A DNA stretch of 24,000 nucleotides, taken from positions 1-24,000 of the forward strand of contig JBCNVN010000017.1 in assembly GCA_039630055.1 (NCBI GenBank), read 5' to 3'. Of this stretch, positions 3,817 to 17,673 are shown one piece after another. The notes below the pieces were generated by a model, which did no database searches, was not told the origin of the DNA, and saw nothing but the letters and a program-made list of their open reading frames with translations. The DNA is from Candidatus Caldarchaeales archaeon. GTDB lineage: Archaea > Thermoproteota > Nitrososphaeria_A > Caldarchaeales > Wolframiiraptoraceae. Every line of letters begins with the position of its first letter. The stretch's first letter is position 1. Position numbers and translations under genes: made by a program.

Positions 3817-4782
3817 CTATATATCTTTGAGATCTATGTGGACTACTCTATTCTTTTGGATCGACTCTAAAATAGATTCAGCTATTGCAACAGCTTTCAT
3901 ACCATCGATCTCATCCGGTGAAGGTTTAACATTATTTCTCAAACACTCAACGAAACTTGTCAACTCTATTTTTAATGGTTCTTCATACTTCATTATAGGC
4001 TCAGTAACCATCTCTGCCTTCTCAATTACTATCTGCTGAGTTAGGAACTGTATAGTGATTACTCCACTAGACCCTGTGATAAACATCTCTCTCTTCTTTC
4101 TCGGCGTCAGCCAGTTAGCCTCGATGAAAGCCATCTCCTCTTCTTCTCCAAACGATATTATCGCTTGTACATGGTCTTCTAATCTACTATGTTTTTGCCT
4201 TCCCCCTCTAGCATAAACAGATGTAGGCTCGTGGCAGAAGATATATCTCGCCAAGTCTATATCATGTATCGCAGTATCTTTAACCACGCCTACATCTCCG
4301 ATCCTTTCAGGCCACCATCCAATCCTCCTACTATGCGTAACGATTACATCTCCAATCTCTCCACCATTGAGTAATTCTTTCGCTTTCCTAACAGCTGGAT
4401 TAAACCTCTCTATAAAGCCTACCATAACTTTTTTACCACTAGACTTTACAGCATCGACAATCTTAAAACACTCTTCTATAGTTGATGCTAGAGGCTTCTC
4501 AACCAAAACATTTACACCTGCTTCAAGAGATTTTATGGTCAGCTCTGAATGGGTTACTGATGGGGTGCATATCGAGACAGCGTCCAGCTCATGTCTTCTT
4601 AGGACATCATCCAGGCTAGAATAAAAATTTTTAATATTGTATTTAGATGCTACCTGTTTCGCCCGCTCATAATCTATATCGCAGACGGCCTCTATCTGTA
4701 CATCGGAGATTTCAGAGAATACTCTTACATGATTTCTACCCCAGAAGCCTACACCGATAACCCCGATCTTTAATGGATACAA
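3817..4782 (-). CDS. Gfo/Idh/MocA-family NAD(P)-dependent oxidoreductase (sugar/nucleotide-sugar dehydrogenase-like)
   Basis: N-terminal Rossmann block KIGVIGVGFWGRNHVRVF, then the family EKP motif (VLVEKPLAS) and a C-terminal alpha/beta domain. The start is TTG, preceded by GGAGGATC (SD). It is the last gene of the aglH operon. Confidence 0.8.
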   Translation of the reverse strand: MYPLKIGVIGVGFWGRNHVRVFSEISDVQIEAVCDIDYERAKQVASKYNIKNFYSSLDDVLRRHELDAVSICTPSVTHSELTIKSLEAGVNVLVEKPLASTIEECFKIVDAVKSSGKKVMVGFIERFNPAVRKAKELLNGGEIGDVIVTHSRRIGWWPERIGDVGVVKDTAIHDIDLARYIFCHEPTSVYARGGRQKHSRLEDHVQAIISFGEEEEMAFIEANWLTPRKKREMFITGSSGVITIQFLTQQIVIEKAEMVTEPIMKYEEPLKIELTSFVECLRNNVKPSPDEIDGMKAVAIAESILESIQKNRVVHIDLKDI

Positions 4783-4833: not shown

Positions 4834-5073
4834 TTATTCTTTAAGCATTAATCTGTAGAACCATCTCTTTGTTAATTCATACCATCCATAGACCCATAAA
4901 GCTATTACCGTGACTCCAAGAGTGACTCTAATCAATCCTAGAATAGGTTCTCCATCTGCATACTCTATCACGGGAAATAATGTATATGCGAGTATGAATG
5001 TTACCGTTAAGAATCCTGCCCATACAATCGTTAAAAGGATGGCGGTCATCAAAGTATTTTTTAGCAGAGACAT
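4834..5073 (-). CDS. Small 2-TM membrane protein (79 aa), unknown function, translationally coupled to aglH
   Basis: There are two clear hydrophobic helices. The ATG lies 7 nt downstream of a perfect GAGGTGA SD that overlaps the aglH stop codon (nt 5081-5087 on the minus strand). The gene is packed between two operon genes. Confidence 0.55.
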   Translation of the reverse strand: MSLLKNTLMTAILLTIVWAGFLTVTFILAYTLFPVIEYADGEPILGLIRVTLGVTVIALWVYGWYELTKRWFYRLMLKE

Positions 5074-5080
5074 GAATTTC

Positions 5081-6058
5081 TCACCTCATGAAGGCCAAAT
5101 CCGTCAAGACTGCGAGGAATGCAGAGTAAAATGACAAGATGCTTATCGATTTTACCAAGTTATCTTCTCTAGCCTTGATATTTGCTGATAGAATCCTAAC
5201 CAGTGTTAGGGGTGCTTTATGGTCTGAGTTAGCAGAGATCATCCCATCTTGAATAATAATAGGTCTCGAGTCGTAATTTTTCGCCGACTTCAATCCACGC
5301 ATAGAAAATATAACATGCATCTCGTTCATAATGTGTGGGAGAAGAGCAATTATAGCGGCCACCTCTACTCTACCGATTATGGCCGTTGAGGCCATGACCG
5401 CTCCGATGAGGAGGCTTCCAGAATTGCCGGCAAATATTCTTGCTGGATACCTATTATAGATCGTAAAGGCTGTTAGAGAAGCCAACATGATTACAGATAC
5501 CAGTAGAGGAAACTCTGATTGATGGAGAAGAGATATAATAAATATGGCTGTGAAGAATGCTATCGATGTAAAGGATATCGACCCATTCAATACATCAATA
5601 CTATTAACTGCGTTACATACAATTGGAAAACTTGCTATAGCCAATACTGGATAGATCTTCGTCAATCTTGTAGCACCGATGAATGGTAGCTCGGGTCGAG
5701 GAGAATAGGTAGAGAATAAGAGGATGGGGATACCTGCGGATAAAAGAAAGATGGGTTTAGCCTTAGGATTGATCTCTACTTTAAGGTCTTCTATCAAACC
5801 TATAATCCACGCTATAGCTGAAGAACAAGTCAGTGCTAGAACATCTAGAGAGAGGCCTTCTAGAAAGATATAGATTGCAAGACTAGAGAATATTCCGATT
5901 ATTAAAACTATGCCCCCGGTCTTAGGTATTATCGGCCTATGAGGTTTATGGATATCCACGCCAACTAGATTTATCTTTCTCCCAATCTTGATGAAGAATG
6001 GAGTAAAAAGCATCACAGAGATGAAGGAAGCCATAAAGACTATTAAATAGATAAACAT
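5081..6058 (-). CDS. aglH: UDP-GlcNAc:dolichyl-phosphate GlcNAc-1-phosphate transferase (GT4 / MraY-WecA-Alg7 family)
   Basis: A polytopic protein carrying the family motifs: IPKTGGI near the N-terminus, IGLIEDL (Mg site), NAVNSIDVLNG (the N..N..DG.DG-type loop) and FAGNSGSLLIG. Confidence 0.85.
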   Translation of the reverse strand: MFIYLIVFMASFISVMLFTPFFIKIGRKINLVGVDIHKPHRPIIPKTGGIVLIIGIFSSLAIYIFLEGLSLDVLALTCSSAIAWIIGLIEDLKVEINPKAKPIFLLSAGIPILLFSTYSPRPELPFIGATRLTKIYPVLAIASFPIVCNAVNSIDVLNGSISFTSIAFFTAIFIISLLHQSEFPLLVSVIMLASLTAFTIYNRYPARIFAGNSGSLLIGAVMASTAIIGRVEVAAIIALLPHIMNEMHVIFSMRGLKSAKNYDSRPIIIQDGMISANSDHKAPLTLVRILSANIKAREDNLVKSISILSFYSAFLAVLTDLAFMR

Positions 6059-6208: not shown

Positions 6209-7285
6209 ATGAAGATGAAGGTCTGGCTCGATATACTGACTCCGAAGCAGCTCTTCTTCTTCACATCCATTGCAAAGATATTGAGGAAGGAGGGTTTTGA
6301 ATTATTTCTATCAGCTCGAAGATATGAACAGCTGGATGGACTTATCAAAGAGTTCTTCTCAGATTGGAAGATAGAGATCTTTGGTAGATTCGGTGGCTAC
6401 AGTTTATATGAGAAGCTGAGAGCAAGCAGTGAGAGGCTCAACCTCTTGATAGATAATGCTCCTCTTAAAGAAGTAGATTTGGTAGCTTCAAGTGGGTCTG
6501 TAGAAGCATCTAGAATAGCTTATGGTCTCCAGATACCCCATATACTGGTCTCAGATTCTCCTCATTCTCCAGTAAATCTTCTCACCGCCCCGGTCTCAAA
6601 ACTTGTTCTAACACCTTGGGTCATAGATAAAAAAGAGTGGATAAAGTATGGTGTAAAATCTTCTATGGTCAAGAGGTATCGAGCACTCGATCCATACTTC
6701 TGGCTTAGAGACTTTAAGCCTGATAAGACTATCCTAGAAAGATTAGGAGTAGATAGTGGATATGTCTTGATTAGACTTCCAGAGTCTGCTGCTTCTTATC
6801 TTAGAATAGATGATAGAGAATATGTTAAGATCTTAACCAAGTTTCTAGATATTGTCAAGGTTTACGGGTTCAGAACTTTGGTTATGGCAAGATATAGAGA
6901 GCAGATAGAACTTGTAGAGAAGGTCATTAAAAATTATGATGTGATCTTGGTTGATAAGCCTGTAATCGGGAGTAACCTGATTTACTATTCTAGGATATTT
7001 ATCGGTGGTGGAGGAACCATGAGTCAGGAGGCCGCACTCCTAGGCAAACCCTGTGTATCGATCTATCCTGGAAAGCAGCCGACCATACTCAAATTCCTAT
7101 CTAGAATAGGGTTGATCAGACACTGTAGTGAGATCGACTACTCTCTCAAAGTCATAGATAATATCCTGAAAGATATTGATAGATTTCATCAAGAAGTTTA
7201 TGATAAGTCTAGAAGACTCTGGAAGCTTATGAAAGACCCTGAAGACCAGATATCTAGATGGTTTAAAGAGGCTAAGACTAAGTAA
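6209..7285 (+). CDS. DUF354-family protein (predicted GT-B-fold glycosyltransferase/epimerase-like)
   Basis: The N-terminus KVWLDILTPKQLFFF..I...L...G.E, then PHI.V.DSPHS, TPW.I....W.KYG, Y.ALDP..WL.DFKPD and the C-terminal GGGGTMSQEAALLGKP match my recollection of archaeal DUF354 proteins. Divergent from aglH. Confidence 0.65.
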   Translation: MKMKVWLDILTPKQLFFFTSIAKILRKEGFELFLSARRYEQLDGLIKEFFSDWKIEIFGRFGGYSLYEKLRASSERLNLLIDNAPLKEVDLVASSGSVEASRIAYGLQIPHILVSDSPHSPVNLLTAPVSKLVLTPWVIDKKEWIKYGVKSSMVKRYRALDPYFWLRDFKPDKTILERLGVDSGYVLIRLPESAASYLRIDDREYVKILTKFLDIVKVYGFRTLVMARYREQIELVEKVIKNYDVILVDKPVIGSNLIYYSRIFIGGGGTMSQEAALLGKPCVSIYPGKQPTILKFLSRIGLIRHCSEIDYSLKVIDNILKDIDRFHQEVYDKSRRLWKLMKDPEDQISRWFKEAKTK

Positions 7286-8885
7286 GACTTCTCCTCAAAG
7301 CCTCTAATTCTCTAACCATCTTCTCAGAATTTTTAAGAATGTTCTTATAAACATCTTCTACCTGTTTATCGAATACTTTTCTACCCATGCTTCCCGATAG
7401 ATACTTGTGCACCATCATCCATAGCTGCTCGATAGACTGCTCTATCATCTTAGAAGTATTGGTCAATATGTCTATCTTATCTGAAGCCTCTGGAACGGTC
7501 TTCTTCAGATCTATAGAGATGCTGGAGATCCTACTAATGTATTTAGAGACATCATTTCTTATCTCAAGTATTCTCGGTCTAACATATCCTTTATCAAGTA
7601 TCTTCCTACTGGTAATCAAGTCTCCTACTAGATTACATGATCTTATCAATCCCTCTACATCCTCGATCAGCTTCCTAGCCTTCTCCTCATATTCTCTTAG
7701 TGGAGGCTTAAAAACCGGTCTCAATGAATATACCAAGATTCCTACAATGAAGATTGTTAAAGATGCTCCAAGGACGTATGGGATGAATGATGATAGGCTG
7801 AGAGTACGTTTAACCTCTATCTTAAAACTCTTCGTATCCTCGGTTAGAGGTGAGAGCATACCTAATGTAAAGGTTATAGAAGTCTTCTCAGGATATATTC
7901 TTTTAACCTCTATAGGTTCGATATTTGATGAGATATACTCCATTGAGGGTAGAATCACGTTTACCCTATAATCTGGAGTACTTATGTTGAAAGGTAGATG
8001 GGGGTAGACTATTATAGAATCTTCACCTAGACTGTAAAATGTGTTCTCAGGAGGATTGAACCTGATTATTACCGTCTGGCTCTCACCTACATTTAGAACC
8101 CTTCCAAAATATACACGTAATCTTCCACTATTTTCATCATAACTGTTTGAGAGTTTTCTTAACAGGTCTTCAGTCTCGATAAGTCTTGAACCATTTGGTA
8201 GAGTAAAATCGAAACCATCGACTGTTCTTCCATCTCTTAGATTAAGCTTAACCATATATTCAGCTTGATTTGATGATAAATCTAGTCTAAGATGAATGTT
8301 GACCGGTCTAATCGAACTGATCTCTCCAATATTGAACTCCATCCGTAGATTGTTTACCTTGGTAGTATCTAGAGAAAGCTCTCCGACTGCTGTTACACCA
8401 TCTCCTCCAATCTTTATAGCCTCTGGATAGACCTCACTTATATTTGACCAATCAGGTAGAAACATTCTTAGCTTGATCTGCTTTAAATCTTCTCTTGTTA
8501 ACGGGTTCAAGGGAAACTCTAAACTAAAGCTATCAGCTCCACTCTTCCCCAATAGGTCTCCAAAGATCGTTATTAGCTTCATACTATATGATGATTGATT
8601 TGAATATACTCTGAACCAGAATGCCTCATCTTCTATATTCATCTCTACTCTGCCATCAGGCGAATAATAATCTACCAGATTTCGTAGGAGTTCTCTCGGA
8701 AATCCTATCTCTATACTTCCTCCAAGTGCTGGAAGAGTATCAATCACATAGATAAACCCATACCTATCGATCTCTATGATTCTCTCAGCTTCCTTTTCCC
8801 CTAATACTATGTTTGGATGAGACGTATACATGAAGAGAATCATTATGAAGATTATTGTAACAAGTATCTTCTTCAAATCTCTCAC
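7278..8885 (-). CDS. Type I membrane protein with a large Cys-free ectodomain, one TM and a helical cytoplasmic tail; ribophorin-I/Ost1-like (hypothesis)
   Basis: A long ORF with a GTG start. Layout: signal/anchor (aa 7-21), about 340 aa of beta-rich ectodomain with 4 N-x-S/T sequons, a TM at aa ~364-388 (nt 7722-7796), then a ~145-aa K/E-rich helical tail. The coding call is solid. The functional call rests on architecture, pattern similarity recalled from eukaryotic RPN1/Ost1, and genomic context. Confidence 0.5.
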   Translation of the reverse strand: MRDLKKILVTIIFIMILFMYTSHPNIVLGEKEAERIIEIDRYGFIYVIDTLPALGGSIEIGFPRELLRNLVDYYSPDGRVEMNIEDEAFWFRVYSNQSSYSMKLITIFGDLLGKSGADSFSLEFPLNPLTREDLKQIKLRMFLPDWSNISEVYPEAIKIGGDGVTAVGELSLDTTKVNNLRMEFNIGEISSIRPVNIHLRLDLSSNQAEYMVKLNLRDGRTVDGFDFTLPNGSRLIETEDLLRKLSNSYDENSGRLRVYFGRVLNVGESQTVIIRFNPPENTFYSLGEDSIIVYPHLPFNISTPDYRVNVILPSMEYISSNIEPIEVKRIYPEKTSITFTLGMLSPLTEDTKSFKIEVKRTLSLSSFIPYVLGASLTIFIVGILVYSLRPVFKPPLREYEEKARKLIEDVEGLIRSCNLVGDLITSRKILDKGYVRPRILEIRNDVSKYISRISSISIDLKKTVPEASDKIDILTNTSKMIEQSIEQLWMMVHKYLSGSMGRKVFDKQVEDVYKNILKNSEKMVRELEALRRSLT

Positions 8886-9175
8886 CTGCTATCAAACACT
8901 AATCATTATTTAAAGCCTTCACAAGAGAGGAGAATATATGGATATCCTTCATAATCCTAGTGAGATAATGAGATGTCTCGAAGATTTAAACCTAGAATTC
9001 AGCATATACAATTAAAAATCATATTAATGTGCAACCTCTCCACATCTTCTTATTCATATCCATACTATTAATAATCATGTAGAAATCTTATCTTCAAGGA
9101 AGTTGAAGATTAAGTTAGAAGAGATAGGTACATTGTAAAATAATAAAAAGAATATAGAGACATTGATTAGATATA

Positions 9176-9270
9176 TGCTCCGGCCGGGATTTGAACCCGG
9201 GTCCCTGGCTCGAAAGGCCATTTTACGGCTCTTGGAGCCTGTATACTTGTCCGGGCTATACTACCGGAGC
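9176..9270 (-). tRNA. tRNA-Glu (anticodon UUC) with a 20-nt intron at a non-canonical site (between positions 27 and 28)
   Basis: On the reverse complement, exon 1 runs: acceptor GCTCCGG, then TA, D stem GTAT, D loop AGCCCGGACAA, D stem GTAT, then A and C27. The intron is [AGGCTCCAAGAGCCGTAAAA]. Exon 2 runs: TGGC, anticodon loop CTTTCGA, GCCAG, variable GGAC, T arm CCGGG-TTCAAAT-CCCGG, acceptor CCGGAGC and discriminator A. Removing the bracketed 20 nt gives a 75-nt cloverleaf nearly identical to known crenarchaeal tRNA-Glu(UUC). Confidence 0.85.
9221..9240 (-). other. tRNA-Glu intron (20 nt) in the 5' strand of the anticodon stem
   Basis: Deduced from the mature cloverleaf. The intron folds as a GGCTC-CAA-GAGCC hairpin flanked by 3-nt bulges (AC|a and aa|T). 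These are separated by a 4-position helix, GUAU (tRNA 22-25) against intron GUAA. That is a relaxed bulge-helix-bulge geometry. Confidence 0.7.
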
Positions 9271-9454
9271 ACGGTATACTATACCAATAATGTTAGAGGG
9301 ATATTTTATACTTAGCTTCATCCTAGTTCTTCTTACATTTTCTTATAACAGATTTTATAGTTTATCCATCTTTTTATTATAAAGATTGCTTACTGGAGAT
9401 TGGAGAAGATGGTTATTGACCACTACTTAACCCTTACCTATCTTTTTAATACTA

Positions 9455-9607
9455 TTATTTTGGAAACTCGTATCCGCACTCGGGGCATTTAACATAGTTG
9501 CATGAGATGATGGATGGACATTCACCACATGAGAAGACTCTAGAGTAGCTGACTTCAAAACTAAAACCACATCTGGGACATTTAACGATGTTCTTCTGAT
9601 ACTTCAT
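9455..9607 (-). CDS. Unannotated 50-aa zinc-ribbon microprotein
   Basis: Absent from the supplied track because it is under 60 aa. The minus-strand ORF is MKYQKNIVKCPRCGFSFEVSYSRVFSCGECPSIISCNYVKCPECGYEFPK, with three CxxC pairs (CPRC, CGEC, CPEC) plus one extra Cys. That pattern is unlikely by chance in an AT-rich spacer. Promoter and SD evidence is weak. Confidence 0.45.
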   Translation of the reverse strand: MKYQKNIVKCPRCGFSFEVSYSRVFSCGECPSIISCNYVKCPECGYEFPK

Positions 9608-9769: not shown

Positions 9770-10753
9770 CTAATCACTCCACCATTTCATGCTATCTCTA
9801 TACTGTCTTATATCATCTTCTCTCAACGGCTTTCTGAATATGAAGAGATGCTCATAATAGAGTAGATAGAAATCTGTATAGTATCTCCTACCTTTTTCTA
9901 TGTCTACCCAGCACTCATCTGCTGTCTTTGCTAATCCAGCCCACTTCTCTCTAGTCGTCTTAGTCTTCCACTGATATTTTATAATGTCTTCCCTAAGGAT
10001 GAAGCCAGCCTCTAGAAAAGCCTGCATAGTCCTGAAGGCTACTGGAACATGATGCCTCTGCCTCCTAATATCTCCTACAAGTATTGCACAGAATCTTCCA
10101 GGTTTCAAGACTCTATAACTTTCTCTCGCTATCTCTTTCATACTGTCTATGTATTCGTCGAGACTACCTACAGCCGATATGTCTCCAGGCATCCTCTCTC
10201 TCTTGTTGTAGCGTATGATGTTTACATATGGTGGATGCGTGGCTATCAGGTCTATGGTCTCGTCTTCGATCAAGTCGAGGTTCCTCGCATCTCCTACATA
10301 CGTTCTTATCCAAGTTCTAGGAAAGCTGGGATCGGGAGGATTATACTCAAAGTTTAATCTATCAAGTGTGAGCATTATGCAGTTGATATTTATATCGACT
10401 CCGATAGCATTTCTTCCGAGAAGCTTGCACTCTATCAGCGTTGTTCCAGACCCGCACATCTGGTCTAAAACCGTCTCATTAAGTTTAGAATATCTGATTA
10501 TTATGTTTCTCACCATCTGTGGAGGCCAATTCCCTCTAAAATCTCCTTGATGGGTTGCCCACGTCCCCCTCTCTGGGAAAGACCAGACATTCGTGGTCTC
10601 AAGCTTGAAACCTCTAGGTTGAAGCTCTCTGATCCTTTTAGGCTTTCCAATCCTAATCTTTACATCCTCTATAACCACTTCACCATTAACCTCTATGAAC
10701 CTCTCATAATCTTTACAGGTTACCTCTTTCATCCCAATGTATCTCTCCGACAT
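9770..10753 (-). CDS. SAM-dependent amino-methyltransferase, most likely an N6-adenine/N4-cytosine DNA methyltransferase (motif I before motif IV; HPPY catalytic tetrapeptide)
   Basis: The NVWSFP...H.G.F.GNWPPQMVRNIIIRYSK.NETVLDQMCGSGTT block resembles the X+I region of N4/N6 DNA methylases. It is followed by GVDIN (motif II), VGDARNL (III) and IATHPPY (IV). No nuclease-like ORF is adjacent. Confidence 0.7.
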   Translation of the reverse strand: MSERYIGMKEVTCKDYERFIEVNGEVVIEDVKIRIGKPKRIRELQPRGFKLETTNVWSFPERGTWATHQGDFRGNWPPQMVRNIIIRYSKLNETVLDQMCGSGTTLIECKLLGRNAIGVDININCIMLTLDRLNFEYNPPDPSFPRTWIRTYVGDARNLDLIEDETIDLIATHPPYVNIIRYNKRERMPGDISAVGSLDEYIDSMKEIARESYRVLKPGRFCAILVGDIRRQRHHVPVAFRTMQAFLEAGFILREDIIKYQWKTKTTREKWAGLAKTADECWVDIEKGRRYYTDFYLLYYEHLFIFRKPLREDDIRQYRDSMKWWSD

Positions 10754-10965: not shown

Positions 10966-11529
10966 GTGGACTATTTAACACTCATCCTTCTCTCTCTAGG
11001 CTTATCTCTAGATGATTTCGGAATAGCTTTTGCTCTTAGCCTTCTAACACTTGGAGAATCTTTTAGAATTCGGATGGCTTATGCGGGTAAGATAGCGGTG
11101 GCATTCTCTATCTCAACCGCTCTCCTACCTTTAATAGGCTGGATAGCAGGCTTAATGATCTATGGTTGGGTTGCTGTATTCGATGATTGGATCGTTTTGA
11201 TAGTCTTCTGCGGAGTCGGGCTATGGATCATTAAAGAAGCTTTTGAAGATGAAAAGCTTAAGTCTGTTAACATGTTTTCCTCATCATTCTGGATGCTTGT
11301 GGCCACTGGCGTATTTGGAAGCTTAGACGAGAGCGTATTAGGGGTTAGTTACCCATTCCTCGATATCTCCATCCCATGGATAATAACCGCGGTCATCTTG
11401 GCTAACACAGCTCTAGTATACATGGCGATGCTGTTGAGTATCTGGATAAGGGGTCTAAGCAAGAGATTCACCTCAATCCTCTCCGGCTCAATCCTTATAT
11501 TGCTCGGCATAATGAACTTCATAAGATAA
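10966..11529 (+). CDS. mntP: Manganese efflux pump MntP (DUF204 family)
   Basis: LSLGLSLDDFGIAFALS at the N-terminus and a second internal repeat (GSLDESVLGVS), with about 6 TM helices in 187 aa. The GTG start lies 5 nt after a GAGGTGA SD. Confidence 0.8.
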   Translation: MDYLTLILLSLGLSLDDFGIAFALSLLTLGESFRIRMAYAGKIAVAFSISTALLPLIGWIAGLMIYGWVAVFDDWIVLIVFCGVGLWIIKEAFEDEKLKSVNMFSSSFWMLVATGVFGSLDESVLGVSYPFLDISIPWIITAVILANTALVYMAMLLSIWIRGLSKRFTSILSGSILILLGIMNFIR

Positions 11530-12731: not shown

Positions 12732-12827
12732 TGGGCCGGGCCGGATTCGAACCGGCGACCTCCGCCGCATCCCCGCCGATATATTCTTGCTGTCAGGGCG
12801 GCGTCATAGCCGCTAGACTACCGGCCC
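12732..12827 (-). tRNA. tRNA-Val (anticodon GAC) with a ~23-nt intron next to the anticodon (37/38)
   Basis: On the reverse complement, exon 1 runs: acceptor GGGCCGG, then TA, D stem GTCT, D loop AGCGGCTA, D stem TGAC, then G, anticodon stem strand CCGCC and CTGACA. The intron is [GCAAGAATATATCGGCGGGGATG]. Exon 2 runs: C, GGCGG, variable AGGTC, T arm GCCGG-TTCGAAT-CCGGC, acceptor CCGGCCC and discriminator A. The mature length is 73 nt. Confidence 0.85.
12768..12790 (-). other. tRNA-Val intron (about 23 nt)
   Basis: Deduced from the cloverleaf. The exact junction is ambiguous by 1 nt (37/38 or 38/39). The intron contains a second copy of CGGCGG, the 3' strand of the anticodon stem. Confidence 0.6.
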
Positions 12828-14901: not shown

Positions 14902-16200
14902 ATGACCGGTTTAATTATGATAATTAGAAAAGCTAGGATTAGAGGTAAAGATGGATTATTCGATATCAAGATAGAGGATGGGTTGATAAAGAGTATCTCC
15001 CCACATATCTCAGCTAGAGATGAAGAAGAAATAGATGTAGAGGGTCGCCTAGTGATGCCAACATTCATAGATATGCATTTCCATCTAGACTCGGTACTAA
15101 CCCTAGGAGATCCAAGATTCAATAAATCTGGAACACTGCTAGAAGGAATAGAGATATGGTCAGAATACAAGAAAAAGCTTAGTGTAGAGGATATTCTAGA
15201 CAGAGCAGGGAGAGCTTTAATGCTTATGGTCTCATACGGTACTACAATGATTAGAACGCATGCAGACATTACTGATAAAAACTTGATTACGCTTAAAGGA
15301 TTACTAGAGGTTAAGCGATTATTCAAAGATATAATCGATATACAGATAACCGCTTTTCCCCAGGATGGAATATTGACAGATCCAGAAAATGTCGAACTGC
15401 TTGAGAAGAGTATAGAAATGGGTGCTGACAATGTTGGAATGATCCCACATCTCGAATATACTAGAGAGGATGGAGTCAGATCTATAGATATATCATTCGA
15501 GATAGCTAAAAAATATAATAAAGATATAGATGGACATGTAGATGAGACTGATGATGAGCATTCTAGATTTCTCGAAGTTGTCGCTGCGAAAACTATAAGG
15601 GAAGAATATTTTGGTAGGGTGACCGCTGGACATGCTACCGCTATGCACTCTTATAACGATGCATATGCAGACAAGCTTTACAGATTGCTCAAGATAGCTC
15701 AGATAACCATAGTCCCAAACCCCTTGATAAACATCCATCTCCAAGGAAGATATGATAAGTATCCAAAGAGGAGAGGGTTAGCAAGGATCAAGGAGCTGAT
15801 GGATAATGGGATAAATGTGGCCCTCGGACATGATTGCATCATGGATCCATGGTATCCACTCGGTAGAGGAGACATGATGCTCGTACTCTTCATGGCCGTC
15901 CACATAGCCCAGATGATGGGTTACGATGAGCTCGTAAGATCTTTAGACCTCATAACGGTAAACTCTGCCAAAGCACTTAGGATAGATTCTAAATATGGGG
16001 TGGGAGTAGGAAGAATGGCGAACCTAGTAGTACTTGACGCATACAGCGAGATCGAGGCCTTAACATATCTTAAACGACCACTCTACGTTATAAAAAATGG
16101 GAAGATAATATCTGAGAAGAAACCTGATGAAGTTAAGGTTATAGACCCTTTATATGGAAAGCTCTCCCGATTTGAAGAACCCTTACATAGAAAGCCTTGA
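14902..16200 (+). CDS. codA: Cytosine deaminase-type amidohydrolase (CodA family)
   Basis: PTFIDMHFHLD...NKSGTLLEGIEIWSEYK...RTHADI parallels E. coli CodA (PPFVEPHIHLD...NQSGTLFEGIERWAERK...RTHVDV). A later HVDETDD and the GHD/metal-ligand blocks are also present. The true start may be ATG 14917. Confidence 0.85.
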   Translation: MTGLIMIIRKARIRGKDGLFDIKIEDGLIKSISPHISARDEEEIDVEGRLVMPTFIDMHFHLDSVLTLGDPRFNKSGTLLEGIEIWSEYKKKLSVEDILDRAGRALMLMVSYGTTMIRTHADITDKNLITLKGLLEVKRLFKDIIDIQITAFPQDGILTDPENVELLEKSIEMGADNVGMIPHLEYTREDGVRSIDISFEIAKKYNKDIDGHVDETDDEHSRFLEVVAAKTIREEYFGRVTAGHATAMHSYNDAYADKLYRLLKIAQITIVPNPLINIHLQGRYDKYPKRRGLARIKELMDNGINVALGHDCIMDPWYPLGRGDMMLVLFMAVHIAQMMGYDELVRSLDLITVNSAKALRIDSKYGVGVGRMANLVVLDAYSEIEALTYLKRPLYVIKNGKIISEKKPDEVKVIDPLYGKLSRFEEPLHRKP

Positions 16201-16452
16201 ATAGACTATAAACCTGCATTATGAGTTTTCTTAAAAACAATATAAGTAAAAATTAACGTAAAGTTCCTCCTACACTGTTAGAATAATCGTGGGAATATCT
16301 GAGGTTAGTACTCTAATCTCGTGAAATCGTATCTTGAATTTATAATTATTTACTGAAAATTTTAAAGTTAATAAGTTGTCTCTATGTAGTGATAGCAAAG
16401 GTTTAATTGTCTCTACCTTGATATGCTATAGTGAGATATGGAGTGATGTATA

Positions 16453-17673
16453 TTGGTGAGTAAAAAATCTATTAATGCTGTATCTAAAACCGTTGCTATC
16501 CTGATCGCATTAGTGATAATTTTGGCTATCGTCGCAGCGGTTGAGCCGGTAATGCTGCCTGCAACAACTATAACGAAGACTGACGTTATAACCGAAACTA
16601 AGACTTTTACGACTAGTGTAGGAGCAGCAACGGTAACGGAGACGAGAACAGTATCTACAACAGTGGAGAAGACCGTTACCGTTGGGAAACCTCAGAAGAC
16701 GGAGCTTGTGGTTAGAGCCGTCTTCCAGACCCCTGTAAGCGAGCCTTGGGATGGAGCTATACATACAGCAATCCTCGCAGTTAAGGAAGAGTATGCCGCC
16801 AAAGGTATAAAAGTTGATTATCAGTTTGTAGATAGGAAGATAGACCCGAAAGAGTATGAACTGGCTCTTGAAGATGCAGCAAAAGTTGCAGATATAGTCT
16901 TCCTAGACGCATTCTTAAAAGAAGATATAGCTAGAAGAGTAGCTCAGAAGTATCCTAACGTAGCGTTTGCAGCTGGAAGCGAGTATCTGCCAACACCTCC
17001 GAACTTCGCCGTCTTCGATAACTGGCTACATCAACCAGCCTTCCTGGCCGGGGTAATTGCTGGAAGGGTTACTAAAACGAATAAGATAGGTGTTGTAGCG
17101 GCCATGGAGATAAACGAGGTAAATAGGATAGTTAATGCATTCATACTTGGTGCGAAGACTGTGAACCCAAACGTTAAAGCTAAAGTTGTATATCTACTTG
17201 GAAACATTCCGCCTGGAGAGTCTCCATGGTATCATCCAGCAACTGCTAAGAGACTTGCCAAGACCCTGATAGATCTAGGAGCAGATGTAATCTTTGCCGA
17301 GAGGGTTGGAGCAGAAGAGGCAGCTAGAGAAGCATATGCTGGAGGGAAGGAGGTCTGGGTTATAGGGATGATGGCAGATCAATATGATAGAGCTCCTGAA
17401 GTAACTGTAACCAGTCTAGTCTGGGATATGAGACCAACTGTAAGAGTAGCTTTCGAGAGAGTACTGGCTGGAACATGGACAGCGGACAATCTTGGAACAT
17501 ATTCTTGGATGAGCTTTGGAGGATCATATCTAGCAGATTTCCATCACTTTGGCAAGCCTTCACCTCCACTCAACTCTGAAATACTGAAAGAAGTCAAAGA
17601 ATGGGAGAAAAGAATAATAGATGGTTTAACATGGATACCGATAGTCGAAACACCACCGGTATCAGATTATTAA
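16453..17673 (+). CDS. BMP-family (PnrA/Med-like) nucleoside ABC transporter substrate-binding protein, membrane anchored
   Basis: An N-terminal TM anchor is followed by a Thr/Val-rich linker (TTITKTDVITETKTFTTSVGAATVTETRTVSTTVEKTVTV) and then a BMP-type periplasmic-binding fold. The start is TTG/GTG, 6-9 nt after GGAGTGATG (SD). Confidence 0.8.
   Translation: MVSKKSINAVSKTVAILIALVIILAIVAAVEPVMLPATTITKTDVITETKTFTTSVGAATVTETRTVSTTVEKTVTVGKPQKTELVVRAVFQTPVSEPWDGAIHTAILAVKEEYAAKGIKVDYQFVDRKIDPKEYELALEDAAKVADIVFLDAFLKEDIARRVAQKYPNVAFAAGSEYLPTPPNFAVFDNWLHQPAFLAGVIAGRVTKTNKIGVVAAMEINEVNRIVNAFILGAKTVNPNVKAKVVYLLGNIPPGESPWYHPATAKRLAKTLIDLGADVIFAERVGAEEAAREAYAGGKEVWVIGMMADQYDRAPEVTVTSLVWDMRPTVRVAFERVLAGTWTADNLGTYSWMSFGGSYLADFHHFGKPSPPLNSEILKEVKEWEKRIIDGLTWIPIVETPPVSDY

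Follow-up and report, generated by a model that had tools for sequence, protein, structure and literature searches.

A highly divergent Ost1/ribophorin I family protein encoded beside AglH-type and DUF354 genes in a Caldarchaeales archaeon

We analysed a 24,000-nucleotide stretch of the genome of a hot-spring Candidatus Caldarchaeales archaeon (contig JBCNVN010000017.1 of assembly GCA_039630055.1, positions 1 to 24,000 of the forward strand; hereafter the window) and, within it, a gene at 7278-8885 on the minus strand that encodes a 535-residue membrane protein. The gene almost certainly encodes a real, very divergent archaeal member of the Ost1/ribophorin I family, because three independent lines of evidence converge on this assignment: a fold search, sequence profiles that pass through intermediate homologues, and synteny with an orthologue recognised by the corresponding Pfam model. 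Eukaryotic Ost1, or ribophorin I (RPN1), is a non-catalytic subunit of the oligosaccharyltransferase (OST). We consider it probable that the archaeal protein is a divergent family member whose most likely role is that of a non-catalytic AglB partner, with a tail contacting the ribosome or the Sec machinery. Homology to ribophorin I had been proposed from the letters of the DNA alone (the sequence-only reading below), and this proposal is borne out by all three lines.

The open reading frame (ORF) comprises 535 codons plus a stop and begins with GTG. It had been read correctly from the sequence and is supported by the ORF call, by homologues and by the fold matches of its AlphaFold2 (AF2) model. 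The architecture described below is shared by 21 homologues at 37-99% identity and by 74 cluster representatives, and the ORF is therefore not a chance one. Its start codon is ambiguous, either GTG at 8885 or TTG at 8876; the latter has a Shine-Dalgarno-like GGTGA 5 nt upstream and would yield a 532-residue protein, the length of a metagenomic protein that is 99% identical (P0001). A TATA-like box (TTTAAATAA) lies approximately 25-30 nt upstream of the GTG at 8885.

The AF2 model of the 535-residue protein was built on 14 homologues (mean predicted local distance difference test score, pLDDT, of 85.9), and secondary structure was assigned with DSSP. When the full model was compared with the PDB using Foldseek, the best eight matches were all chains of OST-complex entries: 8b6l_O (the best, E 1.6e-24), 8pn9_E, 6s7o_E and 6s7t_E from human, and 7oci_A, 6ezn_A, 8agb_E and 6c26_1 (E 1.5e-14) from yeast. 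A profile search of PDB sequences identified 6s7o_E and 6c26_1 as OST subunit 1 (RPN1 and Ost1, respectively), and the other matched entries hold the same two sequences. Alignments extend over 571-586 columns with the RPN1 of OST-A, in which the tail is resolved, and over 430-437 columns with the RPN1 of OST-B and with yeast Ost1, in which it is not. The next fold, the N-terminal beta domain of M1 aminopeptidases, follows at approximately 1e-6 over only about 200 columns, 8-18 orders of magnitude behind the Ost1/RPN1 matches. The model predicts two tandem beta-sandwiches with Ost1 topology, which is the ectodomain plan that the sequence-only reading had expected a structure prediction to reveal. 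An S-layer, adhesin or pilin-like fold was rejected on the Foldseek ranking, which places only Ost1/RPN1 at the top.

The sequence evidence was obtained through intermediates. A profile built from the 14 nearest homologues (A1) retrieved 74 proteins at E <1e-3 from 1.84 billion cluster representatives, mostly 520-590 residues long and aligned nearly end to end. PF04597, the Pfam Ribophorin_I family, is matched by 35 of the 65 aligned representatives (best E 2e-24). A bridging orthologue, P0030, matches A1 at E 3e-29 and scores 33.8 bits on PF04597 (gathering score 25), matching PF04597 positions 250-436 across the region equivalent to the second sandwich. The profile of the 65 aligned cluster representatives (A2) in turn matches human RPN1 over residues 8-607 (E 1.2e-32), the crystallised tail of OST1 from the Asgard archaeon MK-D1 (8whn_A, E 1.9e-17) and yeast Ost1 (E 1.4e-10). 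In order that Asgard sequences could not carry the RPN1 and 8whn signal, we built a hidden Markov model (HMM) from only 30 sequences of four Caldarchaeales-type clusters, with E values taken at PDB-scale Z. This Caldarchaeales-only HMM matches 8whn at E 1.2e-3 and RPN1 273-607 at E 1.6e-7, the register of model positions 222-531 holding from the second sandwich across the transmembrane (TM) segment and on to the C-terminus of RPN1. Statistical homology to bona fide Ost1/RPN1 was thus found via intermediates. A homologue search with the 65-sequence alignment brought up no proteins beyond the 21 already known, and a locus search with A1 only close Caldarchaeales relatives. The sequence-only reading had also proposed five local motif pairings with RPN1; with both proteins aligned to the family HMMs, four of the five fall in exact register, whereas IRPVNIHLRLDL, the remaining one, is shifted by some six residues.

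The predicted topology is that of a type I membrane protein, with an N-terminal signal-like helix, an ectodomain, one TM segment near the C-terminal third and basic residues after it. The N-terminal signal peptide or anchor (aa 1-29; 8799-8885, minus strand, as for all features of this gene) was delimited from DSSP and pLDDT and consists of the basic stretch MRDLKK, a hydrophobic helix at aa 2-21 and a linker at aa 22-29 that is disordered or of low confidence in the model (pLDDT <50). The ectodomain that follows (aa 30-363) is modelled as nearly all beta strand. Its first sandwich (~aa 30-189; 8319-8798), recognised from the strand pattern of the model and from invariant columns, opens with the conserved motif R-[LI]-IE-[VI]-D-[RK]-[YH]-G, which aligns to its RPN1 counterpart; the second (~aa 190-363; 7797-8318) is defined by the model and by the alignment of the Caldarchaeales-only HMM to RPN1. 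The only Cys of the protein, C417, is found in the tail, leaving the ectodomain Cys-free. Sequons occur at NQS96, NIS148, NGS231 and NIS300 of the ectodomain, with a fifth (NTS476) in the cytosolic tail. The N300-I-S302 sequon (7980-7988) is the only one kept in 14/14 close homologues, N300 and S302 both being invariant. The single TM helix (aa 364-388; 7722-7796; DSSP helix 365-387) aligns to the RPN1 TM segment and is followed by the basic residues LRPVFKPPLREYEEKARK.

Beyond the membrane, the model predicts a net basic, cytoplasmic four-helix bundle (aa 389-535; 7281-7721). The tail of 146 residues contains 28 K+R against 22 D+E; its four long helices occupy aa 396-534 of the full-length model, and the domain modelled in isolation again shows four helices, with a pLDDT of 91. 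The tail motif YLSGSMGRKVF (7371-7403), in which Y495, L496 and G498 are invariant, was aligned to RLVAGKLKKDTY of RPN1 and YKRGKLPSKAAY of Asgard OST1. The common pattern is Y-x-x-G-[KR/S]-[ILM]-x3-4-[YF] (YLSGSMGRKVF in the window, LVAGKLKKDTY in RPN1 and YKRGKLPSKAAY in MK-D1), and the G-[KR]-[IL] motif is located at the same helix position. The overall plan agrees with what the sequence-only reading had drawn: the N-terminal signal or anchor, the Cys-free beta-strand ectodomain with four sequons, the one TM segment at about aa 364-388 and the helical cytoplasmic tail of about 145 residues are each found in the model or the sequence. As a separate observation, two similar hairpin motifs are seen in the tail at aa 425-440 and 495-510 (KILDKGYVRPR and YLSGSMGRKVF), as they are in MK-D1 OST1 (RRKRIQKKVY and KRGKLPSKAAY); this suggests that the four-helix bundle arose via duplication of a helical hairpin.

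Within Caldarchaeales, the gene is linked to the first genes of lipid-linked oligosaccharide (LLO) assembly. It converges on a DUF354 gene (PF04007, E 2.2e-42; 6209-7285, plus strand), with which it overlaps by 8 bp (7278-7285), and beyond this lies a GT4-type gene of the AglH/Alg7/MraY family (PF00953, E 1.7e-27; 5081-6058, minus strand); both the overlap and the AglH/Alg7-type neighbour had been noted correctly from the sequence. The core arrangement, in which the Ost1-like gene is convergent with DUF354 and GT4 comes next, recurs in 6/6 further Caldarchaeales-type loci examined (L008-L013). A small membrane ORF (77-96 aa), a GFO_IDH_MocA gene and an eIF2B-like gene also follow in the five loci that are long enough (L008, L009, L010, L012 and L013). 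L016, counted apart from these, has the full same arrangement with a small ORF of 70 aa. The bridging orthologue P0030, which lies above the Pfam threshold, has the whole gene neighbourhood of the window protein, and the synteny with glycosylation genes holds down to ~15-18% identity. In a Nitrososphaerota locus (L012/L013, 1-9783), the region directly upstream of the Ost1 orthologue is taken up by a cluster of approximately 10 kb, which contains glycosyltransferase (GT) genes of the GT1 and GT2 types together with nucleoside diphosphate (NDP)-sugar genes (RmlA-like, epimerases and UDP-glucose dehydrogenase).

Several results weigh against this interpretation, and we take them in turn for the family assignment, the tail and the genomic context. 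Searched alone, the window protein gave no significant match in Pfam, NCBIfam or PDB sequences, only chance matches (picornavirus VP3 and BBH37). It does not reach the gathering threshold of PF04597, and the direct Ribophorin_I match that the sequence-only reading had looked for did not appear even at E 10. The A1 profile likewise found no match among PDB sequences, and its hhalign comparison with RPN1 fragments and the 8whn tail was not significant (probability <1%), the best local pairing being the tail motif that the earlier reading had picked. As there is no direct sequence match, the family assignment cannot rest on one; the failed PF04597 threshold reflects the limited sensitivity of the model and does not concern a defining structural feature. 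One could suppose instead a generic surface beta-sandwich protein, such as an S-layer-associated, adhesin-like or protease-domain-like anchor, whose likeness to Ost1 is convergent and whose locus is coincidental. Beta-sandwiches are indeed common, as the M1 aminopeptidase matches illustrate, and the missing direct match would suit such a protein. However, the top eight folds are all Ost1/RPN1 and take in both sandwiches and the TM segment, the profile links through intermediates are highly significant, the motifs are in register over the whole length, and the glycosylation synteny is conserved between very distant relatives. This alternative is already largely refuted, and we regard it as extremely unlikely. 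The sequence-only reading had named a missing profile match combined with an unrelated ectodomain fold as the outcome that would overturn it; a profile link exists, and the fold is the Ost1 plan.

For the tail, a Foldseek search of this domain alone against the PDB finds a generic up-down four-helix bundle that it does not distinguish from designed ones. No match reaches E 0.001; RPN1 ranks second (E 0.028, TM-score 0.61) among designed bundles, and 8whn_A falls outside the top 50. The Caldarchaeales-only profile gives E 48 against the RPN1 tail alone. In addition, the ribosomal contacts of mammalian RPN1 include elements of eukaryotic type, eL28 among them, that may lack a counterpart here. 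The search results for the tail could be accounted for if only the ectodomain and TM segment were Ost1-homologous, the tail being an independently acquired coiled-coil or four-helix bundle unrelated to the ribosome-binding domain of RPN1. K/E-rich helical segments do draw spurious matches (GvpG, CdvA and BBH37), and yeast Ost1 is without a tail domain. Nevertheless, a tail of similar length is present in most full-length members, including the Bathyarchaeota and Asgard proteins examined, and A1 alignments run through it. Tail-only matches inside the family attain library-wide significance in the A1 search (for example P0088, at positions 372-532), and A2 reaches through the RPN1 tail to residue 607. 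An independently acquired tail is very unlikely in our estimate. Although the tail is the weaker point of the assignment and its sequence support is marginal, it is probably homologous to the cytosolic domain of RPN1 and MK-D1 OST1, because the A2 matches, the marginal 8whn match of the Caldarchaeales-only HMM, the tail-only matches within the family and the conserved G-[KR]-[IL] motif all point to the same domain.

The genomic context is likewise not entirely as expected of an AglB partner. An AglB/STT3 gene was absent from the window and, in every locus examined, from the flanking 8-10 kb; the genes conserved next to the Ost1-like gene encode cytoplasmic-face enzymes of LLO synthesis rather than the transferase. 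The synteny is absent from the Bathyarchaeota, Culexmicrobium and Asgard relatives examined, so that the linkage to glycosylation genes anticipated by the sequence-only reading holds within Caldarchaeales but not in these other groups, nor does it extend to AglB. Taken at face value, the synteny would fit an Ost1-fold protein that serves LLO assembly instead of AglB or the ribosome, with a tail that recruits or organises GT4/AglH, the soluble DUF354 protein and the small membrane protein, loosely resembling the anchoring of Alg13 by Alg14. The identity of the conserved neighbours (AglH-type GT4, DUF354, the small membrane protein and a sugar oxidoreductase) argues for this, as do the position of the Ost1 gene at the edge of the large GT/NDP-sugar cluster in L012/L013 and the weakness of the tail's specific homology to a ribosome-binding domain. 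On the other hand, the synteny is limited to Caldarchaeales-type lineages, and the members examined in the other three groups keep the architecture without it. The Ost1-like and DUF354 genes are convergent and not co-transcribed, and therefore do not form an operon. Furthermore, the tail motif Y-x-x-G-[KR]-[IL]-x3-4-[YF] is shared with RPN1 and with MK-D1 OST1, whose tail binds ribosomes (PMC11417166). A role confined to LLO assembly is accordingly one that we judge unlikely.

We therefore return to the reading of the protein as a partner of AglB. It would be a type I protein of the cytoplasmic membrane, with two beta-sandwiches outside, a TM segment and a basic bundle in the cytoplasm. In mammals, it is through the cytosolic bundle of RPN1 that OST-A docks on the ribosome. 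By analogy with the eukaryotic OST and the MK-D1 protein, the Ost1-like protein would most likely be a non-catalytic partner of the oligosaccharyltransferase AglB, with its ectodomain beside the emerging polypeptide; the basic tail would contact the translating ribosome or the Sec translocon, thereby coupling glycosylation to translocation. It is from this analogy that we infer an association with AglB, ribosome binding and an effect on glycosylation. We lean, if only slightly, towards an accessory role with AglB, and put forward ribosome docking by the tail more tentatively, with some doubt. A bolder proposal, speculative and rather doubtful, is that the complete RPN1-type plan, including a ribosome-docking bundle, is older than the TACK/Asgard split and hence no innovation of Asgard archaea or eukaryotes, and that the Caldarchaeales protein belongs to an LLO-initiating module (AglH, DUF354 and the small membrane protein). 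Archaeal Ost1 would then physically organise a membrane glycosylation assembly in which LLO synthesis is connected to AglB and to ribosomes engaged in translation.

The locus places a full-length version, with both sandwiches, the TM segment and an RPN1-like helical bundle, in a deep thermophilic TACK lineage as well. This supports an origin earlier than the Asgard-eukaryote lineage for this accessory subunit of OST, and possibly for the coupling of OST to the ribosome. Censuses based on PF04597 would undercount the Ost1 family, since a divergent subfamily is missed by current Pfam models. The AglH/DUF354 linkage is the first genomic-context hint found that archaeal Ost1 belongs to N-glycosylation.

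In the conserved cluster, the gene at 5081-6058 encodes a predicted polyprenol-phosphate N-acetylhexosamine-1-phosphate transferase with the polytopic Glycos_transf_4 domain; judged by family it is of the AglH/Alg7 type, and its best NCBIfam matches are weak, MraY-type and far under cut-offs. Immediately downstream, a conserved 79-residue hydrophobic protein (4834-5073, minus strand) has two predicted TM segments, as judged from its sequence. It has no Pfam match, and its counterparts at the same place in four distant syntenic loci (L008, L010, L012 and L016) retain Trp, Pro and Arg at invariant positions; the protein may serve the glycosylation machinery as a small subunit. The GFO/IDH/MocA oxidoreductase at 3817-4782 (minus strand), a probable nucleotide-sugar dehydrogenase, belongs to the conserved cluster by synteny. 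For the DUF354 protein, a conserved partner throughout the Caldarchaeales-type loci, we found no sequence relative in the PDB and, judging by titles, no paper evidently tied to the family. Agl24, the archaeal Alg13/14-MurG-like chitobiose synthase, is defined by an N-terminal GGH motif with the catalytic His14 (PMC8993221), and was rejected as an identity for DUF354, whose N-terminus MKMKVWLDILTPKQLFFF is without the GGH motif. That DUF354 acts as a second-step glycosyltransferase is offered only as a hypothesis.

Other features of the window were noted in passing. Two tRNA genes, at 9175-9271 and 12732-12827 (both minus strand), are over-long at 95-97 nt; ARAGORN assigned the first an impossible four-base anticodon and missed the second, and the two score 45.6 and 58.8 bits, respectively, as Rfam tRNAs. 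Both probably contain introns. Upstream of the Ost1-like gene, beyond the first of these tRNAs, a 50-residue ORF (9455-9607, minus strand) is a zinc ribbon with four CxxC pairs, and its place is taken in L008, L010 and L011 by ORFs of 50-52 aa with faint UPF0547 matches. Between the zinc-ribbon ORF and UvdE, an N6/N4 DNA methylase (9770-10753, minus strand) and an MntP manganese exporter (10966-11529, plus strand) are found only in the window: UvdE directly adjoins the zinc-ribbon ORF in L008, and L010 has sulfur-transfer genes and neither methylase nor MntP. The segment 9770-11529 looks like a local insertion carrying an orphan methyltransferase. Finally, genes for a tungsten-type aldehyde:ferredoxin oxidoreductase and a ferredoxin, which in relatives lie between the Bmp lipoprotein and an amidohydrolase (L008 2414-5077; L010 1159-3841), are missing at window 14902-16500.

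Aigarchaeota isolate SKYB24 (67% identity) and Candidatus Geocrenenecus species (52-58%) provide the nearest genomes; these metagenome-assembled genomes (MAGs) agree with the earlier guess of a TACK-type thermophile. The wider family extends to Candidatus Caldiarchaeum, Candidatus Pelearchaeum, Nitrososphaerota MAGs, Bathyarchaeota, Methanomethylicota/Culexmicrobium and Asgard archaea. A 2016 survey by Lombard found no prokaryotic Ost1 homologues (PMC4973528), and most papers count ribophorin I/Ost1 among the "eukaryotic signature proteins" of Asgard archaea (PMC10307638, PMC8813620). The sequence-only reading overstated the novelty of finding it beyond Asgard genomes, and the gain is incremental: Carilo et al. 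2024 (PMC11417166) devote a single sentence to the occurrence of OST1 and OST3/6 in both TACK and Asgard archaea, and a Bathyarchaeota protein (KYH42048.1) is already annotated as "Ribophorin 1 superfamily protein". Every named database record that we found for the window's own subfamily reads hypothetical protein. The new elements are a divergent subfamily in Caldarchaeales that PF04597 fails to detect, the full-length RPN1-type plan of the TACK proteins, and the conserved linkage of the Ost1-like gene to AglH and DUF354.

Among the known systems, mammalian RPN1 (6s7o_E, 8b6l, 8pn9) provides the best fold match and has the same signal, two beta-sandwiches, single TM segment and cytosolic four-helix bundle of about 145 residues, with the motifs R-x-[IV]-[ED]-[IVL], LP-x-G and G-K-L-x3-Y in register. 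It differs in that identity to the window protein is 13-15%, with no direct sequence match, and in residing in the endoplasmic reticulum as opposed to the cytoplasmic membrane; the N300 sequon of the window protein also lies elsewhere than the N-x-S of RPN1 in EIGNVSTS, which aligns to window aa 237-250. Yeast Ost1 (6ezn_A, 6c26_1, 7oci_A) shares the two luminal beta-sandwiches and the TM segment (Foldseek E 1e-14 to 1e-16, target-normalised TM-score 0.55-0.59) but has no cytosolic helical domain. The TACK "Ribophorin 1 superfamily" proteins (KYH42048.1 of Bathyarchaeota, and P0030 of Nitrososphaerota with its PF04597 match) are alike in family and architecture, whereas the window subfamily (Wolframiiraptoraceae-like; Candidatus Geocrenenecus and relatives at 52-67% identity) lies below Pfam detection. 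MK-D1 OST1 (Candidatus Prometheoarchaeum syntrophicum; 8whn) is, like the window protein, an archaeal plasma-membrane Ost1 of the same profile family. Its tail folds into a four-helix bundle with the human topology, and pull-down of human ribosomes was shown for both the human and the MK-D1 tails (PMC11417166). The window protein, by comparison, is from TACK (Caldarchaeales) and shorter (535 versus ~607 aa), and its link to 8whn stands only at E 1.2e-3 once Asgard sequences leave the profile. The two archaeal proteins share a basic tail with a common Y-[KR]-x-G-[KR]-[IL] motif and, in contrast to the one Asgard locus examined, the window gene is syntenic with AglH and DUF354.

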